The notes beneath the pieces are model-generated. The model ran no database searches. It was not told where the DNA came from and saw nothing but the letters and a program-made list of their open reading frames with translations. The translations under genes were made by a program, and so were the position numbers. Source: a virus. From it: a DNA stretch of 10,490 nt. The first letter of the stretch is position 1, and each line of letters begins with the position of its first letter. Positions 1-10,274 of the stretch are shown here, in pieces. The stretch is from UHGV virus genome UHGV-0050635. One strand, 5' to 3'.

Positions 1-611
1 TTTTCAAGGATCGAAACTTCTGGGTTTTCGTCATATTTATTGTGGGGACGTGGTCTTTCTATAACATTTTTGATCAACAACTTTTTCCTGTCTTTTATGC
101 AGGTTTATTCGAATCACACGATGTAGGAACGCGCCTGTATGGTTATCTCAACTCATTCCAGGTGGTACTCGAAGCGCTGTGCATGGCGATTATTCCTTTC
201 TTTGTGAATCGGGTAGGGCCAAAAAATGCATTACTTATCGGAGTTGTGATTATGGCGTTGCGTATCCTTTCCTGCGCGCTGTTCGTTAACCCCTGGATTA
301 TTTCATTAGTGAAGTTGTTACATGCCATTGAGGTTCCACTTTGTGTCATATCCGTCTTCAAATACAGCGTGGCAAACTTTGATAAGCGCCTGTCGTCGAC
401 GATCTTTCTGATTGGTTTTCAAATTGCCAGTTCGCTTGGGATTGTGCTGCTTTCAACGCCGACTGGGATACTCTTTGACCACGCAGGCTACCAGACAGTT
501 TTCTTCGCAATTTCGGGTATTGTCTGCCTGATGTTGCTATTTGGCATTTTCTTCTTGAGTAAAAAACGCGAGCAAATAGTTATGGAAACGCCTGTACCTT
601 CAGCAATATAG
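1..611 (+). CDS. MFS transporter, LacY/oligosaccharide:H+ symporter family, C-terminal fragment (5' end lies outside the window; frame is open from nt 3, stop TAG 609-611)
   Basis: Reading frame is open from the window edge to 611. Translation aligns by eye with the LacY C-terminal half (GTR.YGY...NR.G.KNALL...KYS/ITS.F..R.S.TI.L motifs) and contains multiple hydrophobic helices. Probable host flank gene. Confidence 0.8.
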   Translation, partial: FKDRNFWVFVIFIVGTWSFYNIFDQQLFPVFYAGLFESHDVGTRLYGYLNSFQVVLEALCMAIIPFFVNRVGPKNALLIGVVIMALRILSCALFVNPWIISLVKLLHAIEVPLCVISVFKYSVANFDKRLSSTIFLIGFQIASSLGIVLLSTPTGILFDHAGYQTVFFAISGIVCLMLLFGIFFLSKKREQIVMETPVPSAI

Positions 612-1140: not shown

Positions 1141-1341
1141 TTACCCATTGGCGCGGCTTAAGAGCTTATTTTTGAATTCACAATGGTCACGATATAACCA
1201 TCTTGCTCGTCCGTGGATAACTTTGGCTTTTGGCAGGTCGCCGGACTTAATCCGGTCGTAGATGAAGGTTTTACCGAAGCCAGTATCGGCCATGATGAAT
1301 TTCAAATCAACCAGTGAATCAGGCTGTAGTTCGTGTTGCAT
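1141..1341 (-). CDS. AlpA/Xis-family small DNA-binding protein (putative excisionase or prophage regulatory protein)
   Basis: 66-aa ORF with ATG at 1341 and a GGAGA motif 8 nt upstream. The translation LVDLKFIMADTGFGKTFIYDRIKSGDLPKAKVIHGRARW matches the AlpA/phage-excisionase HTH signature (TG.S.STIY ... G.FP.P.K.G.RA..W). Confidence 0.7.
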   Translation of the reverse strand: MQHELQPDSLVDLKFIMADTGFGKTFIYDRIKSGDLPKAKVIHGRARWLYRDHCEFKNKLLSRANG

Positions 1342-2526: not shown

Positions 2527-3198
2527 TCACCCATCTTGCTGCGGTGCTACTATTGAAAAGTGCTCACACCCTTTAGCCCAAATAGTTTTGATAGTTGTCC
2601 AACTGACTGGAACCTTGATTTCGATTCTCCCGCTACAGTCACAAGTTTCGCAATCATCATCACCAAAGCATTCCGGGCAGCTTATAAACGTAGTTTCTGA
2701 AAATTCACCGGATAGCACACCCTTAGCGCCGTTCTCGGCTGTTAGTCTCTTCGGCACCATGACCCAACCATCCGGAATTACCGGAGAGTTGCCGGGTTCT
2801 TTAATGTGCAAGCGAGGCTCACCATCTTTTGGCTCAGGCCACTGGCGCTCCATGTTGATCTTCAATTTATCTTCCATAGCAGCGGTAATTTCAGCATCGC
2901 TGATGCCAGCACGGCGCTGTGAATCCCACAACAGAAACTGCATATCAGCCCACTCGCTAAGATCGTCTGGTTCGGCTGCGGCTTCCAGTGCCTCTTTTGA
3001 GAGGTGTTTCAGTGGACCAATGGGGCCAACGCAGCCAAATGTGGAGTCAGACCATTTGGCATGCTCGTGGCGAATCTGTTCGCGTTCCAGTGATGCCAGT
3101 GCAATTCGTGCCAGTTCCATTTGTTCGCCACGAGTAAGCCCGTTTTCAAGCGGATTTTTAATGAATAATTCGATACGTTCTTTGGTAATAGTGGTCAT
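2527..3198 (-). CDS. Putative MazG-like (all-alpha) dNTP/NTP pyrophosphohydrolase domain protein with a Cys-rich C-terminal domain (223 aa)
   Basis: ATG at 3198 with AAGGTGA upstream. The N-terminal region (EQMELARIALASLEREQIRHEHAKWSDSTFG ... DMQFLLWDSQRRAGISDAEITAAMEDKL) resembles the phage dATP/dGTP pyrophosphohydrolase/MazG-like fold. The C-terminus carries CPECFGDDDCETCDC. Family assignment is from recalled motifs, not a search. Confidence 0.5.
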   Translation of the reverse strand: MTTITKERIELFIKNPLENGLTRGEQMELARIALASLEREQIRHEHAKWSDSTFGCVGPIGPLKHLSKEALEAAAEPDDLSEWADMQFLLWDSQRRAGISDAEITAAMEDKLKINMERQWPEPKDGEPRLHIKEPGNSPVIPDGWVMVPKRLTAENGAKGVLSGEFSETTFISCPECFGDDDCETCDCSGRIEIKVPVSWTTIKTIWAKGCEHFSIVAPQQDG

Positions 3199-4421: not shown

Positions 4422-4715
4422 TCAGTCATTACTGATAGCGCCATAGCGTGAGCGGTAATTACGCAGGCGCGGGTCAATTTCAGGGAAGTGGGTATATGTG
4501 GCTTTGCGGAATGGTCGGATTGATGTCTGGTAAATTCGCTCGCGTTCTTCTTTCTCTGCAAGCCATATACAATGGCGAAATTCCTTTTCCTCTTTCGTTT
4601 CCTGCGGTAGCGACATTATCCGGTCGTAGTTTTTCCTGAATTTATCCAGCACCTCCGATACGGAATTGCCGGAACAGCGGCGCGGGTCATCCGCACCATA
4701 CTGAGGCGCTGGCAT
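4422..4715 (-). CDS. Hypothetical protein (97 aa)
   Basis: ATG at 4715 with AGGAGAA 5 nt upstream, 14 nt downstream of the ssb stop. Confidence 0.7.
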
Positions 4716-4728
4716 GATTTTCTCCTGA

Positions 4729-5235
4729 TTAAATTGCGTGAATAGCGTGACGAGGGAAGGGGAGAGTTACTGGTGCAAAGGGTATATCGTCGTCAAAATC
4801 CATCGGAGGTTCGTTGTGTTGTGCTGGTGATGATTGCCGCTGTGGCTTCTGTGATTGCCTGCTGGCTGCTTGTTGTTTGCTGTCGCCAATGCCGCCAAGC
4901 ATTTGCATCACGCCATTAATTCCGACATGAACCTCGGTTGTGTAACGGTCTTGCCCTGACTGGTCTTTCCACTTTCTGGTTCTCAGCATTCCCTCGAAAT
5001 AAATCTGATCACCTTTTTTCACATACTGCCCCACGACCTCAGCCAGTTTCCCGGATACAGCAACACGATGCCATTCAGTCAATTCCTTTTGCTCGCCAGT
5101 ATTTTTATCTAGCCATTGTTCTGACGTGGCTATTGTCAGGTTAGCGAACGCTGTTCCTGATGGTGAGTATCGAACTTCCGGGTCTTGTCCTACCCGACCA
5201 AGGATAATCACCTTATTTACGCCTCTGCTTGCCAT
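4729..5235 (-). CDS. ssb: Single-stranded DNA-binding protein (phage-encoded SSB) with an unusual 15-aa C-terminal extension beyond the DDDIPF tip
   Basis: Translation [23 protein letters not shown]...TEWHRV...GQDRYTTEV...[11 protein letters not shown] is collinear with E. coli SSB (OB fold, Gly/Gln-rich linker, acidic tip). Here the reading frame continues [15 protein letters not shown] before the stop at 4729-4731. Confidence 0.9.
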
Positions 5236-5943
5236 TTATGCCGCCTGTTTTAGTTCGTTAACTCTGATGTTCATTACCTGAACGCATTTAGCCTGCGCCT
5301 CCTCGTTGCCAGCCATTAATTGCCAGTCACGCTGATAACGCTCGATGAGTTTTTTCTTGTCAGTTTCTGTTGACGCATAATCGCTGAAGTCTTTCAGGAT
5401 TTGTTCGCAGTCAACCGATGGAGATTTCTGGTTGGTATTTTCTGGTGATGGTTTGTTATCTGATGCTGGGATTGCCCATCCCGGCAGTGATGGAGGGAGC
5501 CAGTAAAATCCTGTTCCATCCTTCAGTTTTGCCCTGTGCCACCCCTGCTTTTTATCGAGAGATGTTTGTGCGAAACCTTCCTCAAGGTTATACAGATACC
5601 GACCGATTCCCCACTGAACGGCAGCGCGCTTCATTGCACCGGAACGACCGCCTTTGACGGCTTCTACCTGCGTGTTTTCAGCAGCATCCCATTTGGTTAC
5701 CCATTCGGAATCAATCTTGATTGATATGCCGCATTCAACTCCGCCGTTGTTGGGAATATCGCGGTATTCATTGCGCCATCCTGCTTTGCCGCAAACATCG
5801 TCCAGGCGCTTCATGATTGCCCGGTTCGTGACATAAGCCAGCACCATAGCCCACACCTTGCCATCGCGTGTTTTACCGCTTTGCTGTATTCGCCATTCGA
5901 TATCTTCAGGGCTGAATGGCTCATCGAATTTGTTCAAATCCAT
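5236..5943 (-). CDS. Rad52/Sak-like single-strand annealing protein (phage recombinase), 235 aa
   Basis: ATG at 5943 with GAGGTGA upstream. Motifs KAGWRNEY ... GGVECGISI ... GGRSGAMKRAAVQWGIGRYLYN resemble the Rad52/22-family SSAP core. The stop abuts the ssb start (TAAATG). Confidence 0.7.
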   Translation of the reverse strand: MDLNKFDEPFSPEDIEWRIQQSGKTRDGKVWAMVLAYVTNRAIMKRLDDVCGKAGWRNEYRDIPNNGGVECGISIKIDSEWVTKWDAAENTQVEAVKGGRSGAMKRAAVQWGIGRYLYNLEEGFAQTSLDKKQGWHRAKLKDGTGFYWLPPSLPGWAIPASDNKPSPENTNQKSPSVDCEQILKDFSDYASTETDKKKLIERYQRDWQLMAGNEEAQAKCVQVMNIRVNELKQAA

Positions 5944-6592: not shown

Positions 6593-7216
6593 CTATGCGG
6601 CCTCGGAAGGAAGTCCAATCATCTTATTCAAATCTTCTACCCGTAAAGCAGGAAGTGCTGTACTTGCTTTATCTGCTTCTTTTGGTAGCAATTCTTTGCT
6701 TTCAGGCCAAACCTCAATAAGTCGCTTAACTGTTGTGACTGAGTTCAAAGCAGCCCATACATTTGATTCGATATCCTTTTTCTTGGCTTCAAGTTTTTGT
6801 TGCAATGCGCAGATTTCATCAAACCTTTTTGTTATTTCGTGTTCTGCGCTAAACATGCATTTATCTTTTATCGGAGTAGGGAGAAATATATCTTCGCCGT
6901 TGCCGTCTTTCCCATATGAATGCCATCCAACCCTTCTGCCAGATACAGTCAGATAAATTGAAGTAGAACGAAAATCGTATGAGTAAAATGAACATCCCAT
7001 CTTTCCAAGTTCTTCACTTATAGCTACCAACTTGGATGATAACTGATCCACTTCCTCAGTTTTCTTTTTACCGCCAAACGCAATAACTCTGGCGTCAAGT
7101 GCAAGCTGGTTCTTTAACTTTGTTACTTCTTCAAGCTCAGTGAAAACCCCAGACTTAATTAAAGCGTTACGAGCGATTTCCTCTTTCATTCTCGTAGTTA
7201 AGCGGATTGATGACAT
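6593..7216 (-). CDS. Hypothetical protein (207 aa) in the accessory hotspot between cIII and ral
   Basis: ATG at 7216 with GAGGA 6 nt upstream (the track ORF starts at an upstream TTG). No predicted transmembrane character and no recognisable family. A hairpin overlaps the stop codon (6585-6602). Confidence 0.7.
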   Translation of the reverse strand: MSSIRLTTRMKEEIARNALIKSGVFTELEEVTKLKNQLALDARVIAFGGKKKTEEVDQLSSKLVAISEELGKMGCSFYSYDFRSTSIYLTVSGRRVGWHSYGKDGNGEDIFLPTPIKDKCMFSAEHEITKRFDEICALQQKLEAKKKDIESNVWAALNSVTTVKRLIEVWPESKELLPKEADKASTALPALRVEDLNKMIGLPSEAA

Positions 7217-7252
7217 ATTAATTCCTCTCAAATAAGAAAATAAAGGCCACCA

Positions 7253-8920: not shown

Positions 8921-8948
8921 GAAATAAAAAAGGGGCGAAAGCCCCTTA
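8921..8948 (-). terminator. Rho-independent terminator of the repressor transcript (- strand)
   Basis: On the - strand, stem aggggc-tttc-gcccct is followed by TTTTTTATTTCC. It overlaps the c2 stop codon. Confidence 0.7.
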
Positions 8949-9596
8949 AGGAAGGTTTGCTAGCTTGGCATCAACGACAACGCCAATGATTTTACAGTTC
9001 CCATTGATTTCAATCATTGGGTATTGTGGATTGAGTGGTTTCAGGAATTTTCTACCGGCATCAATAACTAACTTTTTGAATGTCGCCTCGTTTTCTCCTT
9101 CAAGTTTGGCGACTACCAACTTTCCATTACGTGGTTCGACTTCTGGGTCGACGAGAATAATCATCCCCTCAGGAATACTCAGTCCTGCCGGGGCAGTCAT
9201 TGAATCGCCTTTAACGTCGAGCCAAAAAGAGTCTTCAGAACAATCTACCGTTGTGTCGTACCAGTTATCTATTGCACGCCTATGATATGGCTCTACAGCT
9301 TCCATCCAACATCCTGCGCTTACCCAACTAATTAGAGGATACGAACCTCTTGGATCATGCCTGCTGTGATAGGCAATGTTTGAAAGACTATCCTCTCCTT
9401 TCAACAGGTAATCAGGGGAGCACTGCAAAGCCTTGGCTAAGGCCAATAGGTTTTCGCCATTGGGCTCAGTTTCAGATCGCTCCCATTGGGAAATAGCAAC
9501 ATTAGACACGCCAACCATCTTGCCAAGGGCAGCCTGCCTAATCTTGAGTTCTTTTCTGCGAGCGCGAATACGCTCACCCATCAGTTGTGTATTCAT
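8946..9596 (-). CDS. c2: Phage repressor, P22 C2 type (LexA/S24-like autocleaving repressor with N-terminal HTH), 216 aa
   Basis: Translation MNTQLMGERIRARRKELKIRQAALGKMVGVSNVAISQWERSETEPNG...IIGVVVDAKLANLP is nearly identical to my recollection of P22 C2. P22-type operators flank it on both sides. Confidence 0.9.
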   Translation of the reverse strand: MNTQLMGERIRARRKELKIRQAALGKMVGVSNVAISQWERSETEPNGENLLALAKALQCSPDYLLKGEDSLSNIAYHSRHDPRGSYPLISWVSAGCWMEAVEPYHRRAIDNWYDTTVDCSEDSFWLDVKGDSMTAPAGLSIPEGMIILVDPEVEPRNGKLVVAKLEGENEATFKKLVIDAGRKFLKPLNPQYPMIEINGNCKIIGVVVDAKLANLP

Positions 9597-9662
9597 AGTT
9601 AAGACATCTTAAATAAACTTGACTTAAGATTCCTTTGGTGGATAATTTAAGTGTTCTTTAAT
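9597..9662. promoter_or_regulatory. OR region: three P22-type operators (OR3 9597-9614, OR2 9622-9639, OR1 9645-9662) with pR (-35 TTGACT 9619-9624, -10 GATAAT 9641-9646) and divergent pRM
   Basis: AGTTAAGACATCTTAAAT and ATTTAAGTGTTCTTTAAT are perfect matches to AnTnAAG-N4-CTTnAnT; ACTTAAGATTCCTTTGGT has one mismatch. The region lies between divergent c2 and cro. Confidence 0.7.
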
Positions 9663-9676
9663 TTCGGAGCGAGTCT

Positions 9677-9862
9677 ATGTACAAAAAAGATGTTATTGAC
9701 CACTTCGGAACCCAGCGTGCTGTTGCTAAAGCACTAGGCATTAGCGATGCAGCAGTCTCTCAGTGGAAAGAAGTTATCCCAGAGAAAGACGCCTATCGAT
9801 TGGAAATCGTTACAGCTGGCGCCCTGAAGTATCAAGAAAGTGCTTACCGCCAAGCGGCATAA
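9677..9862 (+). CDS. cro: Cro repressor, P22 type (61 aa)
   Basis: Translation MYKKDVIDHFGTQRAVAKALGISDAAVSQWKEVIPEKDAYRLEIVTAGALKYQ... matches recalled P22 Cro. GGAG RBS upstream. Confidence 0.9.
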   Translation: MYKKDVIDHFGTQRAVAKALGISDAAVSQWKEVIPEKDAYRLEIVTAGALKYQESAYRQAA

Positions 9863-9870
9863 GCAAATTG

Positions 9871-9910
9871 CTCTTTAACAGTTCTGGCCTTTCACCTCTA
9901 ACCGGGTGAG
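9871..9910 (+). promoter_or_regulatory. nutR: boxA (GCTCTTTAACA 9871-9881) and boxB hairpin (TCACC-TCTAACCG-GGTGA 9893-9910)
   Basis: Same boxA as nutL and a boxB loop sharing CUAACC with the nutL boxB. Located between cro and c1, as in lambda. Confidence 0.55.
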
Positions 9911-9959
9911 CAAACATCAGCGGCAAATCCATTGGGTGTGCCGCTATAACTCAATATCA

Positions 9960-10000
9960 ATATAGGAAAATTAACAAATGGCACAAGCAAGCTACAGCAA
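9960..10000 (-). promoter_or_regulatory. Candidate pRE (cII/C1-activated establishment promoter): TTGC-N6-TTGC on the - strand (forward 9987-10000)
   Basis: The - strand reads TTGCTGTAGCTTGC overlapping the 5' end of c1, the classical arrangement of the cII binding site at pRE. Confidence 0.5.
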
Positions 10001-10274
10001 GCCAACACAGCGAGAAATTGATCGCGCTGAAACTGATTTACTCATCAACCTGTCAACGCTTACCCATCGCGGTCTGGCAAAGATGATTGGCTGTCATGAA
10101 TCGAAGATAAGCAGAACGGACTGGAGATTTATTGCTTCGGTCTTGTGTGCTTTCGGAATGGCATCAGACATCAGTCCGATTAGCAGGGCTTTTAAGTATG
10201 CGCTTGATGAAATCACAAAGAAAAAATCCCCGGCCGCCACCGAGGATTTTAAGCAAATTGATATGCAATTCTGA
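9978..10274 (+). CDS. c1: cII-like transcriptional activator (P22 C1 type), 98 aa
   Basis: HTH region plus C-terminus [18 protein letters not shown] paralleling lambda cII (..KKRPAATERSEQIQMEF). Position after cro and nutR. Confidence 0.85.

Follow-up and report, generated by a model that had tools for sequence, protein, structure and literature searches.

A prophage SSB with a conserved 15-residue extension beyond its acidic tip represents a widespread class of mobile-element SSBs

The stretch of DNA analysed here (UHGV virus genome UHGV-0050635; 10,490 nucleotides, referred to as the window) encodes on its minus strand a bacterial-type SSB (single-stranded DNA-binding protein) whose acidic tip, rather than closing the polypeptide, is followed by fifteen additional residues. 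Over a dozen proteins that maintain the genome are regarded as docking at the SSB tip. Our analysis places the window ssb in a widespread class of mobile-element SSBs that combine the acidic tip with a conserved hydrophobic and basic peptide of ~15 residues and that would, as a consequence, be wired differently into the host interaction hub, a reading to which we give a probability of roughly 0.55 when taken as a whole. The existence of such an extended-tail class, its breadth and the selection acting on it are well supported by the sequence comparisons described below.

The tip of the window SSB is internal

The open reading frame (ORF) listing and the sequence identify an intact ssb gene at positions 4729-5235 of the minus strand, which opens with ATG, closes with TAA (4729-4731) and encodes 168 amino acids, of which phrog_44 spans residues 1-167. 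The first of its elements is the OB-fold domain for binding of single-stranded DNA (ssDNA) and oligomerization (residues 1-113, positions 4897-5235), recognized by Pfam family PF00436 at residues 6-104 (E = 7.7e-36) and predicted by AlphaFold2 (AF2) to form strands between residues 8 and 113 with a predicted local distance difference test (pLDDT) score of ~70-87. A linker rich in Gln, Ser and Pro (residues 114-142, positions 4810-4896), intrinsically disordered according to its sequence and to a pLDDT that stays below 50 from residue 114 on (bar one residue), separates this domain from the 11-residue acidic tip (residues 143-153, positions 4777-4809), with the D-D-D-I-P-F motif occupying residues 148-153 (positions 4777-4794). 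The protein matches E. coli SSB (PDB 1eqq, phmmer E = 1.3e-56) and, as far as sequence can tell, has every attribute of a bacterial-type SSB (the OB-fold domain, the disordered linker and the DDDIPF tip) except that the tip is not terminal: in place of the free terminal Phe of PF00436 SSBs, Phe153 is followed by a 15-residue extension (residues 154-168, positions 4732-4776) and only then by the stop codon.

In the PDB, the matches with E. coli SSB reach no further than residue 153, and the search returned no solved structure covering residues 154-168. The AF2 prediction, which used an alignment of 41 sequences and treats a single chain, leaving tetramers and partners outside its reach, renders the tail as disordered. 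Self-docking of the tail on the OB fold, which we considered as a candidate arrangement, found no support in this model, since the pLDDT lies below 50 for nearly all of residues 114-168. A programmed frameshift that would free the tip was likewise rejected: on visual inspection, shifting by +1 behind TTT produces ...IPFHQ and then a stop, and the -1 frame meets no early stop, so that neither ends the protein at DIPF. The last six codons of the gene (positions 4732-4749) consist of a 9-nucleotide tandem duplication, CACGCTATT/CACGCAATT, coding for HAI-HAI; a single copy of the repeat is present in the Salmonella protein cluster P0001 (588 members), which ends in ...PRHAI.

The extension recurs in independently sequenced genomes

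An earlier note on this DNA, made from the letters alone, had described a prophage SSB in which DDDIPF is followed by a 15-residue extension before the stop and which lies next to a Rad52-like annealase. The ORF and the sequence bear out both observations: the neighboring gene (positions 5236-5943, minus strand) encodes a Rad52/Rad22-family single-strand annealing protein (PF04098, E = 5e-26; phrog_1097) that abuts ssb, the ssb start coming directly after its stop codon (TAAATG). On the downstream side lies abc2 (positions 4422-4715, minus strand; PF11043, E = 4.9e-63), whose product is an anti-RecBCD protein and whose Shine-Dalgarno sequence, AGGAG, comes immediately after the ssb stop.

The same note had also raised the possibility of a sequencing or assembly error at the stop codon, which the distribution of the tail refutes. 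Over a 901-bp ssb/abc2 segment the window is 98.7% identical to phage HK75, 98% identical to mEp235 and mEpX2 and ~90% identical to Salmonella phage epsilon34, and the SSBs of all these phages end in the 15 residues found in the window. With a 108-nucleotide probe that spans tip and extension, the two proved to be uninterrupted in no fewer than 270 of the 5,426 complete E. coli genomes. We further inspected 80 IMG/VR loci carrying the annealase of the window (these were retrieved through the annealase and represent its 80 closest relatives, and hence sample one module, not SSBs at large). The extension is fused to ssb in 60-61 of them; in the other 18-19, ssb stops directly after DIPF and a downstream ORF ends in the extension (the HNH-split form), while loci devoid of extension DNA numbered 0 of 80. 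That an error deleted a stop codon after DIPF is thus close to inconceivable: independently sequenced phages, plasmids, metagenomes and the complete E. coli genomes just counted all have this frame and tail, a recurrence well beyond chance, and we found no evidence in favor of this explanation.

The peptide is conserved while its codons vary

Alignment with homologous SSBs, which the earlier note had suggested as a check on conservation, locates the extension in ~108 of the 120 closest protein clusters of a 5.8-billion-protein collection, down to 66% identity. Its length is exactly 15 residues in all of these clusters but one, the exception being the 12-residue form of P0001. The clusters that carry it derive from E. 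coli, Salmonella, Klebsiella, Citrobacter, Enterobacter, Kluyvera, Pluralibacter, Phytobacter and Tatumella as well as from an uncultured phage, and conservative variants occur among the close clusters (for example APIGLQHPAHFIYSI, SPVGLQYGKHRVYAL and APVGLPYPRHCIYLI). The class consensus, [AS]-P-[VI]-[TG]-L-[PQ]-[FY]-[PG]-[RK]-[HN]-x-[IVL]-[HY]-x-[ILV]-COOH, is matched by the window extension at every position. Ala-Pro follows the Phe in nearly all members recovered by the protein search, in which the pattern was not imposed, and all tail variants terminate in aliphatic residues (..HAI, ..YVI, ..HCI).

To describe the selection acting on this peptide we compared 27 distinct tip-plus-extension sequences. 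In the extension, the proportion of synonymous differences (pS) is 0.71, and hence saturated, and that of nonsynonymous differences (pN) is 0.31, yielding a pN/pS of 0.43; the corresponding ratio for the tip is 0.14. Each conserved position of the extension is encoded by 4-13 different codons, and this free choice of codons for retained residues means that it is the peptide and not the DNA that is conserved. Within the tip, F153, P152, D148 and F147 are invariant across 41 relatives. These comparisons show an extension that is encoded, inherited and, as judged from its substitution pattern, held by purifying selection at the amino-acid level. The earlier note had reasoned that its proposal would fall if homologous phage SSBs revealed the extension to be a common neutral variant; common it has turned out to be, although the purifying selection is at odds with its being neutral.

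The reach of the motif was gauged with a degenerate DNA pattern applied to one genome per species, which reports breadth and not frequency and, with [AS]P[VIM] imposed at the start of the extension, returned at least ~120 stretches with many chance matches among them. Among the matches listed are the related extensions of Morganellaceae (APIGLPYPRHAIYVI), of Pasteurellaceae (APVHHSHSKITIYSI, one genome), of Alteromonadales and relatives (14 residues, APIGLQYPALLSVM) and of Pseudomonas (11 residues, APISRLLLNII, or 9 residues). The scan also repeatedly matched K[LF]P[ED][IM]DDIPFAPICKLYIALGECAS in metagenome-assembled genomes of Chitinophagaceae (stretches L021, L023, L034, L047, L072, L076, L081, L084, L092, L112 and L132), often interrupted by stops; this short stretch probably has nothing to do with SSB and would be a conserved RNA or non-coding element. 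A search with the tail alone in a 1.84-billion representative library, where clustering at 50% identity hides tails, gave 16 matches, mostly fragments. One of them, P0212 (161 residues), is of OB type, starts with MPHTITGQIRKDVFTKTGSS..., ends in ...EPPMEFTDDIPFAPFGLQYSSHAIHSL and by eye is unlike the canonical SSB N-terminus; it would be a further carrier of the tip and extension if its scaffold is confirmed to be distinct.

Tip and extension occur together on unrelated scaffolds

When the 28-residue tail was used as a tblastn query, it matched 104 phage records, including virulent myoviruses in which the tail ends proteins of 310-410 residues. Two of these, the two-OB SSB-like proteins PVP-SE1 gp38 (L146, 1355-2584) and KB57_040 (L147, 1367-2587), end in the tip followed by ...[QP]YGRNFIHCI and the stop, and gp212 of phage nieznany carries the same module of tip and extension. 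Compared directly, PVP-SE1 gp38 shares only the tail with the window SSB. It is, however, 41% identical over its full length to Bas52_0087 (L152, 9982-11208), which ends in a free ...FDDDIPF, indicating that extended and free-tip forms coexist in this rV5-like family of two-OB SSB-like proteins too. The tail is also present on 88 PLSDB plasmids, 58 of which are conjugative. The IncN plasmid pYNKP001-NDM encodes a PF00436-type SSB with the same extension (L153, 2006-2539), and another such SSB resides on a large, non-mobilizable Salmonella plasmid (L154, 2551-3087).

The recombination genes next to these proteins are diverse. Divergent extended SSBs of Klebsiella, Tatumella and an uncultured phage directly follow Rad52-like genes and are followed by varying genes downstream; the 15-residue motif also lies beside RecT in Providencia and beside ERF in Proteus, Xenorhabdus and Vibrio phage V039C. 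Related, shorter extension types adjoin RecT, YqaJ, Sak4-like AAA_24, Gp157 and RdgC-like genes, and no annealase is annotated in the flanks shown of the IncN plasmid SSB and of the rV5-like virulent-phage proteins. At the level of sequence, these cases show the tip and the extension traveling as one unit on unrelated DNA-binding scaffolds of mobile elements, and the extension occurring independently of the type of neighboring recombinase. The proposal of the earlier note that the extension is specialized for the adjacent Rad52-like annealase consequently finds no support, the motif being found beside RecT and ERF genes as well as on IncN plasmid SSBs and virulent-phage proteins. The idea that the tail is a peptide of whatever gene lies upstream of abc2, shared by P22 Abc1, was rejected because Abc1 lacks it.

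An HNH endonuclease gene separates the tip from the extension in free-tip relatives

In phage Sf6 the annealase/ssb/abc2 module recurs with an SSB that ends in ...DDSDIPF, and the next gene, 26, encodes an HNH endonuclease whose last 14 residues, together with the 45 nucleotides that encode this end and the ribosome-binding site of abc2 that follows, are identical to the window. The same arrangement applies to all the close relatives ending in DIPF that we examined in the Rad52-like module (for example P0013): the HNH gene sits exactly between the Phe and Ala codons, a junction seen in Sf6, Salmonella and E. coli that corresponds to positions 4776/4777 of the window (minus strand), between the codons of Phe153 and Ala154. 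The window, where TTT GCA CCA is continuous, represents the uninterrupted allele. The cassettes (L004, 2037-2528, in Sf6; L140/L141, 3457-3960, in Salmonella; L137/L138, 2983-3470, in E. coli) come in two versions that share only ~47% identity. Immediately behind the Phe codon the cassette opens with TAGGAG, which supplies both the ssb stop and the Shine-Dalgarno sequence of the endonuclease; having no stop of its own, it reads as ...PDE[A/E]-PVTLPF... through the old 3' end of ssb and takes the extension as its C-terminus. The arrangement is a clean case of a mobile endonuclease gene that does its host gene as little harm as possible.

Of the 77 HNH homologues found elsewhere, most terminate shortly beyond ...WHKHNKPIY in tails of an unrelated kind, and those that bear the tail are the ones located inside ssb genes. 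Since the homologues elsewhere mostly lack it, the tail belongs to ssb and was captured by the endonuclease. The converse scenario, in which the extension is native to the HNH protein and was fused to ssb by a deletion, was rejected because the tailed HNH proteins sit inside ssb and extended SSBs are found far beyond HNH contexts. Comparison of these alleles shows that, in this lambdoid module, SSBs with a canonical tip arise secondarily, through insertion of the HNH gene.

The junction shows further rearrangements. Cluster P0199 has an N-terminus (Ead/Ea22-like, by eye only) fused to an SSB linker, tip and extension, P0131 and P0134 are SSB-HNH fusion ORFs, and P0204 carries an internal deletion within the extension; from such sequences, the boundary between tip and extension looks to be a recombination hot spot. 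In L137, a second HNH gene (PF13392) lies between the annealase and ssb genes. A 42%-identical member of the cassette family overlaps the last codons of an unrelated, extended SSB-like gene in phage nieznany (a virulent Phapecoctavirus; L150, 2556-3050), and adjoining 'ssb' and 'endonuclease' annotations also occur at the matches in phage morffagbaw and Pseudomonas phage PsgM04F, which suggests that this HNH family may target, or home to, DNA encoding SSB tails.

How the extension may act

In solved complexes of SSB with its partners, the ring of the terminal Phe lies in a hydrophobic pocket and its negatively charged carboxylate contributes to binding as well (PMC6393309). In the window SSB, Phe153 is no longer C-terminal and its alpha-carboxylate contact is lost, so canonical docking into the SSB C-terminus pockets of the host (those of ExoI, RecQ, PriA, chi and others) should be weakened or even abolished; a masked tip with altered docking of host partners is accordingly plausible. 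The extension itself, whose function we infer from its sequence, would be more than a mere cap given that a specific sequence is conserved, and most likely acts as a determinant of docking or regulation whose C-terminus is new and hydrophobic. As it occurs on elements with different recombinases, or with none seen, its target is less likely to be one family of annealases than a host factor that Enterobacterales and Vibrionaceae have in common or some property intrinsic to SSB. The net effect would be an SSB that coats the ssDNA of the element and yet is differently connected to the host SSB interaction hub. The hexapeptide PVTLPF may resemble clamp-binding hexapeptides such as QLSLPL; its Xenorhabdus variant, PIGKQY, lacks the central Leu.

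Several observations weigh against this reading. DDDIPF is nearly invariant beneath the extension, and a tip that is merely put out of action would scarcely account for this: the motif might still bind partners from an internal position, or become exposed through processing. Viable natural variants exist whose tip is free (HNH-split forms, the SSBs of Sf6 and ES18, and Bas52_0087 as opposed to PVP-SE1 gp38), and the extension is therefore not essential. The single-chain AF2 model reveals neither structure nor self-docking of the tail. The selection estimate, in turn, is drawn from 15 codons with saturated synonymous sites, and conservation at extension residues 1-3 is not independent evidence, AP[VIM] having been imposed by the pattern of the genome scan.

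It is this invariance of DDDIPF, as would be expected if the tip is used internally or after unmasking, that leads us to retain a different explanation, unlikely though we judge it: the hydrophobic C-terminus might be a tag for proteases of the type of ClpXP, Lon or ClpAP, or a cap that can be removed, making the SSB short-lived or exposing the DDDIPF carboxylate only after processing. C-terminal tags ending in -LAA or -KAI direct ClpX. The predicted disorder of the tail, the aliphatic end of all its variants and the Ala-Pro that follows Phe in nearly all members from the protein search would fit, yet neither a cleavage site nor a protease was identified, and it is not obvious why virulent phages bearing the extension should need to clear their SSB. 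Resemblance to the Lon tag of SulA (its C-terminal 20 residues) is absent for the window variant, 2278 of 5000 shuffles scoring as high in local alignment, and weak for other variants (p ~0.01-0.03 before multiple testing). A private handle that redirects SSB from host partners to the adjacent Rad52-like annealase seems to us less probable still. The extended ssb always abuts the Rad52_Rad22 gene in enterobacterial lambdoid prophages, Red-beta binds the C-tail of SSB (PMC6393309), and the SSB and Sak4 of HK620 set a precedent for a cognate pair of tail and annealase (PMC5928155). Against such a handle speak the pairing of the motif with RecT (Providencia) and ERF (Proteus, Xenorhabdus, V039C), its presence on IncN plasmids and rV5-like proteins without an annealase annotated in the flanks shown, and the fact that the same annealase works with free-tip SSBs in Sf6, in ES18 and in the HNH-split prophages.

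Two further explanations have very little chance of being correct. One regards the extension as a functionless scar, left when deletion of an HNH gene fused its codons to ssb or when a stop codon was lost; the 100% identity of the 45 nucleotides with the 3' end of Sf6 gene 26, the SSB-HNH fusions (P0131, P0134) and the viability of free-tip variants would agree with it. It does not account, however, for the HNH homologues, which mostly lack the tail and bear it where they sit inside ssb genes, for extensions that have no HNH gene in the vicinity, on SSBs of different orders and on unrelated scaffolds, or for a length and motif kept while synonymous sites are saturated. The other, which would surprise us just as much, holds that the nucleotide sequence is what is conserved, for instance as the translation-initiation region of the downstream gene, a recombination boundary or a homing site. 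The 45 nucleotides are indeed identical between epsilon34 and the window where the rest of ssb is only ~90% identical, and their position coincides with a mosaic junction and with the site of HNH insertion. Across the class, though, codons vary freely and residues are kept, and the downstream gene differs (abc2, a Rv2179c-like exonuclease gene, genes of unknown function, or convergent genes in plasmids and myoviruses).

An extended SSB that is differently connected to the host hub thus remains our preferred reading, and a bolder version of it can be entertained, if only tentatively, as its chances are well short of even. In this version, the tip and extension would form a portable, host-directed peptide that gamma-proteobacterial phages and conjugative plasmids graft onto any ssDNA-binding scaffold, disconnecting the ssDNA of the element from the host SSB network of nucleases, helicases and restart proteins while recruiting, blocking or evading one host factor, such as a nuclease, the replisome or a sensor by which defence systems detect phage SSBs. 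Were this true, the peptide would be a previously unrecognized takeover or anti-defence device in the best-studied interaction hub of bacterial DNA metabolism.

Significance of the extended class

The interest of these results lies in the extension being typical of a large class and not a peculiarity of the window locus. A large group of mobile-element SSBs departs from the accepted docking rule, with the tip buried under a selected 15-residue peptide; ssDNA coated by the element may be handled differently from that of the host, and a partner or a regulatory step for the extension may exist. Nature has supplied paired alleles for comparison, namely the fused extension versus the HNH-split free tip and PVP-SE1 gp38 versus Bas52_0087. 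The practical bearing extends to the pairing of SSBs with annealases in recombineering, to phage SSBs as triggers of defence and to annotation.

The genomic surroundings of the window ssb

The annealase, ssb and abc2 genes are part of the early-left operon of a lambdoid prophage, with a cI-like repressor, cro and cII at 8946-10274 and Ead/Ea22 genes in the same operon context. The window ssb accordingly lies on a mobile element, 98.7% identical to HK75 in this region, rather than at the chromosomal ssb locus. An annealing protein and Abc2 encoded together in the early-left operon constitute a recombination module of the P22/Sf6 type; abc1 is absent from the window module and its slot is taken by ssb. 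Two other proteins of the operon, both encoded on the minus strand, may have nucleotide-pool or counter-defence functions: a dATP/dGTP pyrophosphohydrolase-domain protein (PF04447, positions 2527-3198) and an Nmad5 'nucleotide modification associated' protein (PF18757, positions 6593-7231). At the other end of the window, the 3' part of a gene for a LacY-like oligosaccharide transporter of the major facilitator superfamily (positions 42-611, plus strand) is followed by ~530 bp without a convincing ORF and then by an ORF of 66 residues for an excisionase/AlpA-like protein (positions 1141-1341, minus strand). Neither an integrase gene nor a tRNA lies between the host transporter gene and the early-left operon (positions 42-1341), and the integrase of this prophage may have been lost or be located elsewhere.

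Comparison with known systems

As far as we found, the extended-tail class has not been described before: databases annotate its members plainly as 'ssb', and our literature search, whose scope left out most subscription journals, returned no description of the motif or of extended SSB tails. The chromosomal SSB of E. coli (PF00436; 1eqq/4mz9) has the OB fold, the disordered linker and an identical 11-residue tip, but it ends at Phe177, with the free carboxylate forming part of the docking epitope (PMC6393309), whereas the window protein has 15 conserved residues beyond the Phe. The closest counterparts are the SSBs of HK75 (gp31), mEp235, mEpX2, epsilon34 (gp35), g341c, ECP1 and CP-1639, which share the gene, the module and the extension with the window; some of them carry a Rv2179c-like 3'-5' exonuclease gene between ssb and abc2, which the window lacks. 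In genes 27/26 of Sf6 the module is again the same, although there the extension terminates the endonuclease and not the SSB; the one earlier trace of the motif that we found is a note attached to gene 26 in GenBank, which mentions 14 residues in common with an 'E. coli SSB'.

HK620 likewise has a phage SSB in the same genomic slot with a C-terminus that sets partner specificity, its last six residues being needed by Sak4, so that phage SSB C-termini can determine which annealase is used (PMC5928155, Hutinet et al. 2018). It differs from the window protein in being a distant SSB that ends in NDYPPF, with a free C-terminal Phe and no extension. The two-OB proteins of Vequintavirinae and Stephanstirmvirinae (PVP-SE1 gp38, KB57_040 and nieznany gp212) have the same tip and extension, ending in [QP]YGRNF[IL]HC[IF], on an unrelated N-terminal body, and their free-tip relative Bas52_0087 is the SSB-like protein that sets off the DRT10 defence system (bioRxiv 10.64898/2026.04.29.721553). 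The IncN plasmid SSB, finally, combines the PF00436 domain with the same tail in a different context, adjoining repA and antirestriction genes.

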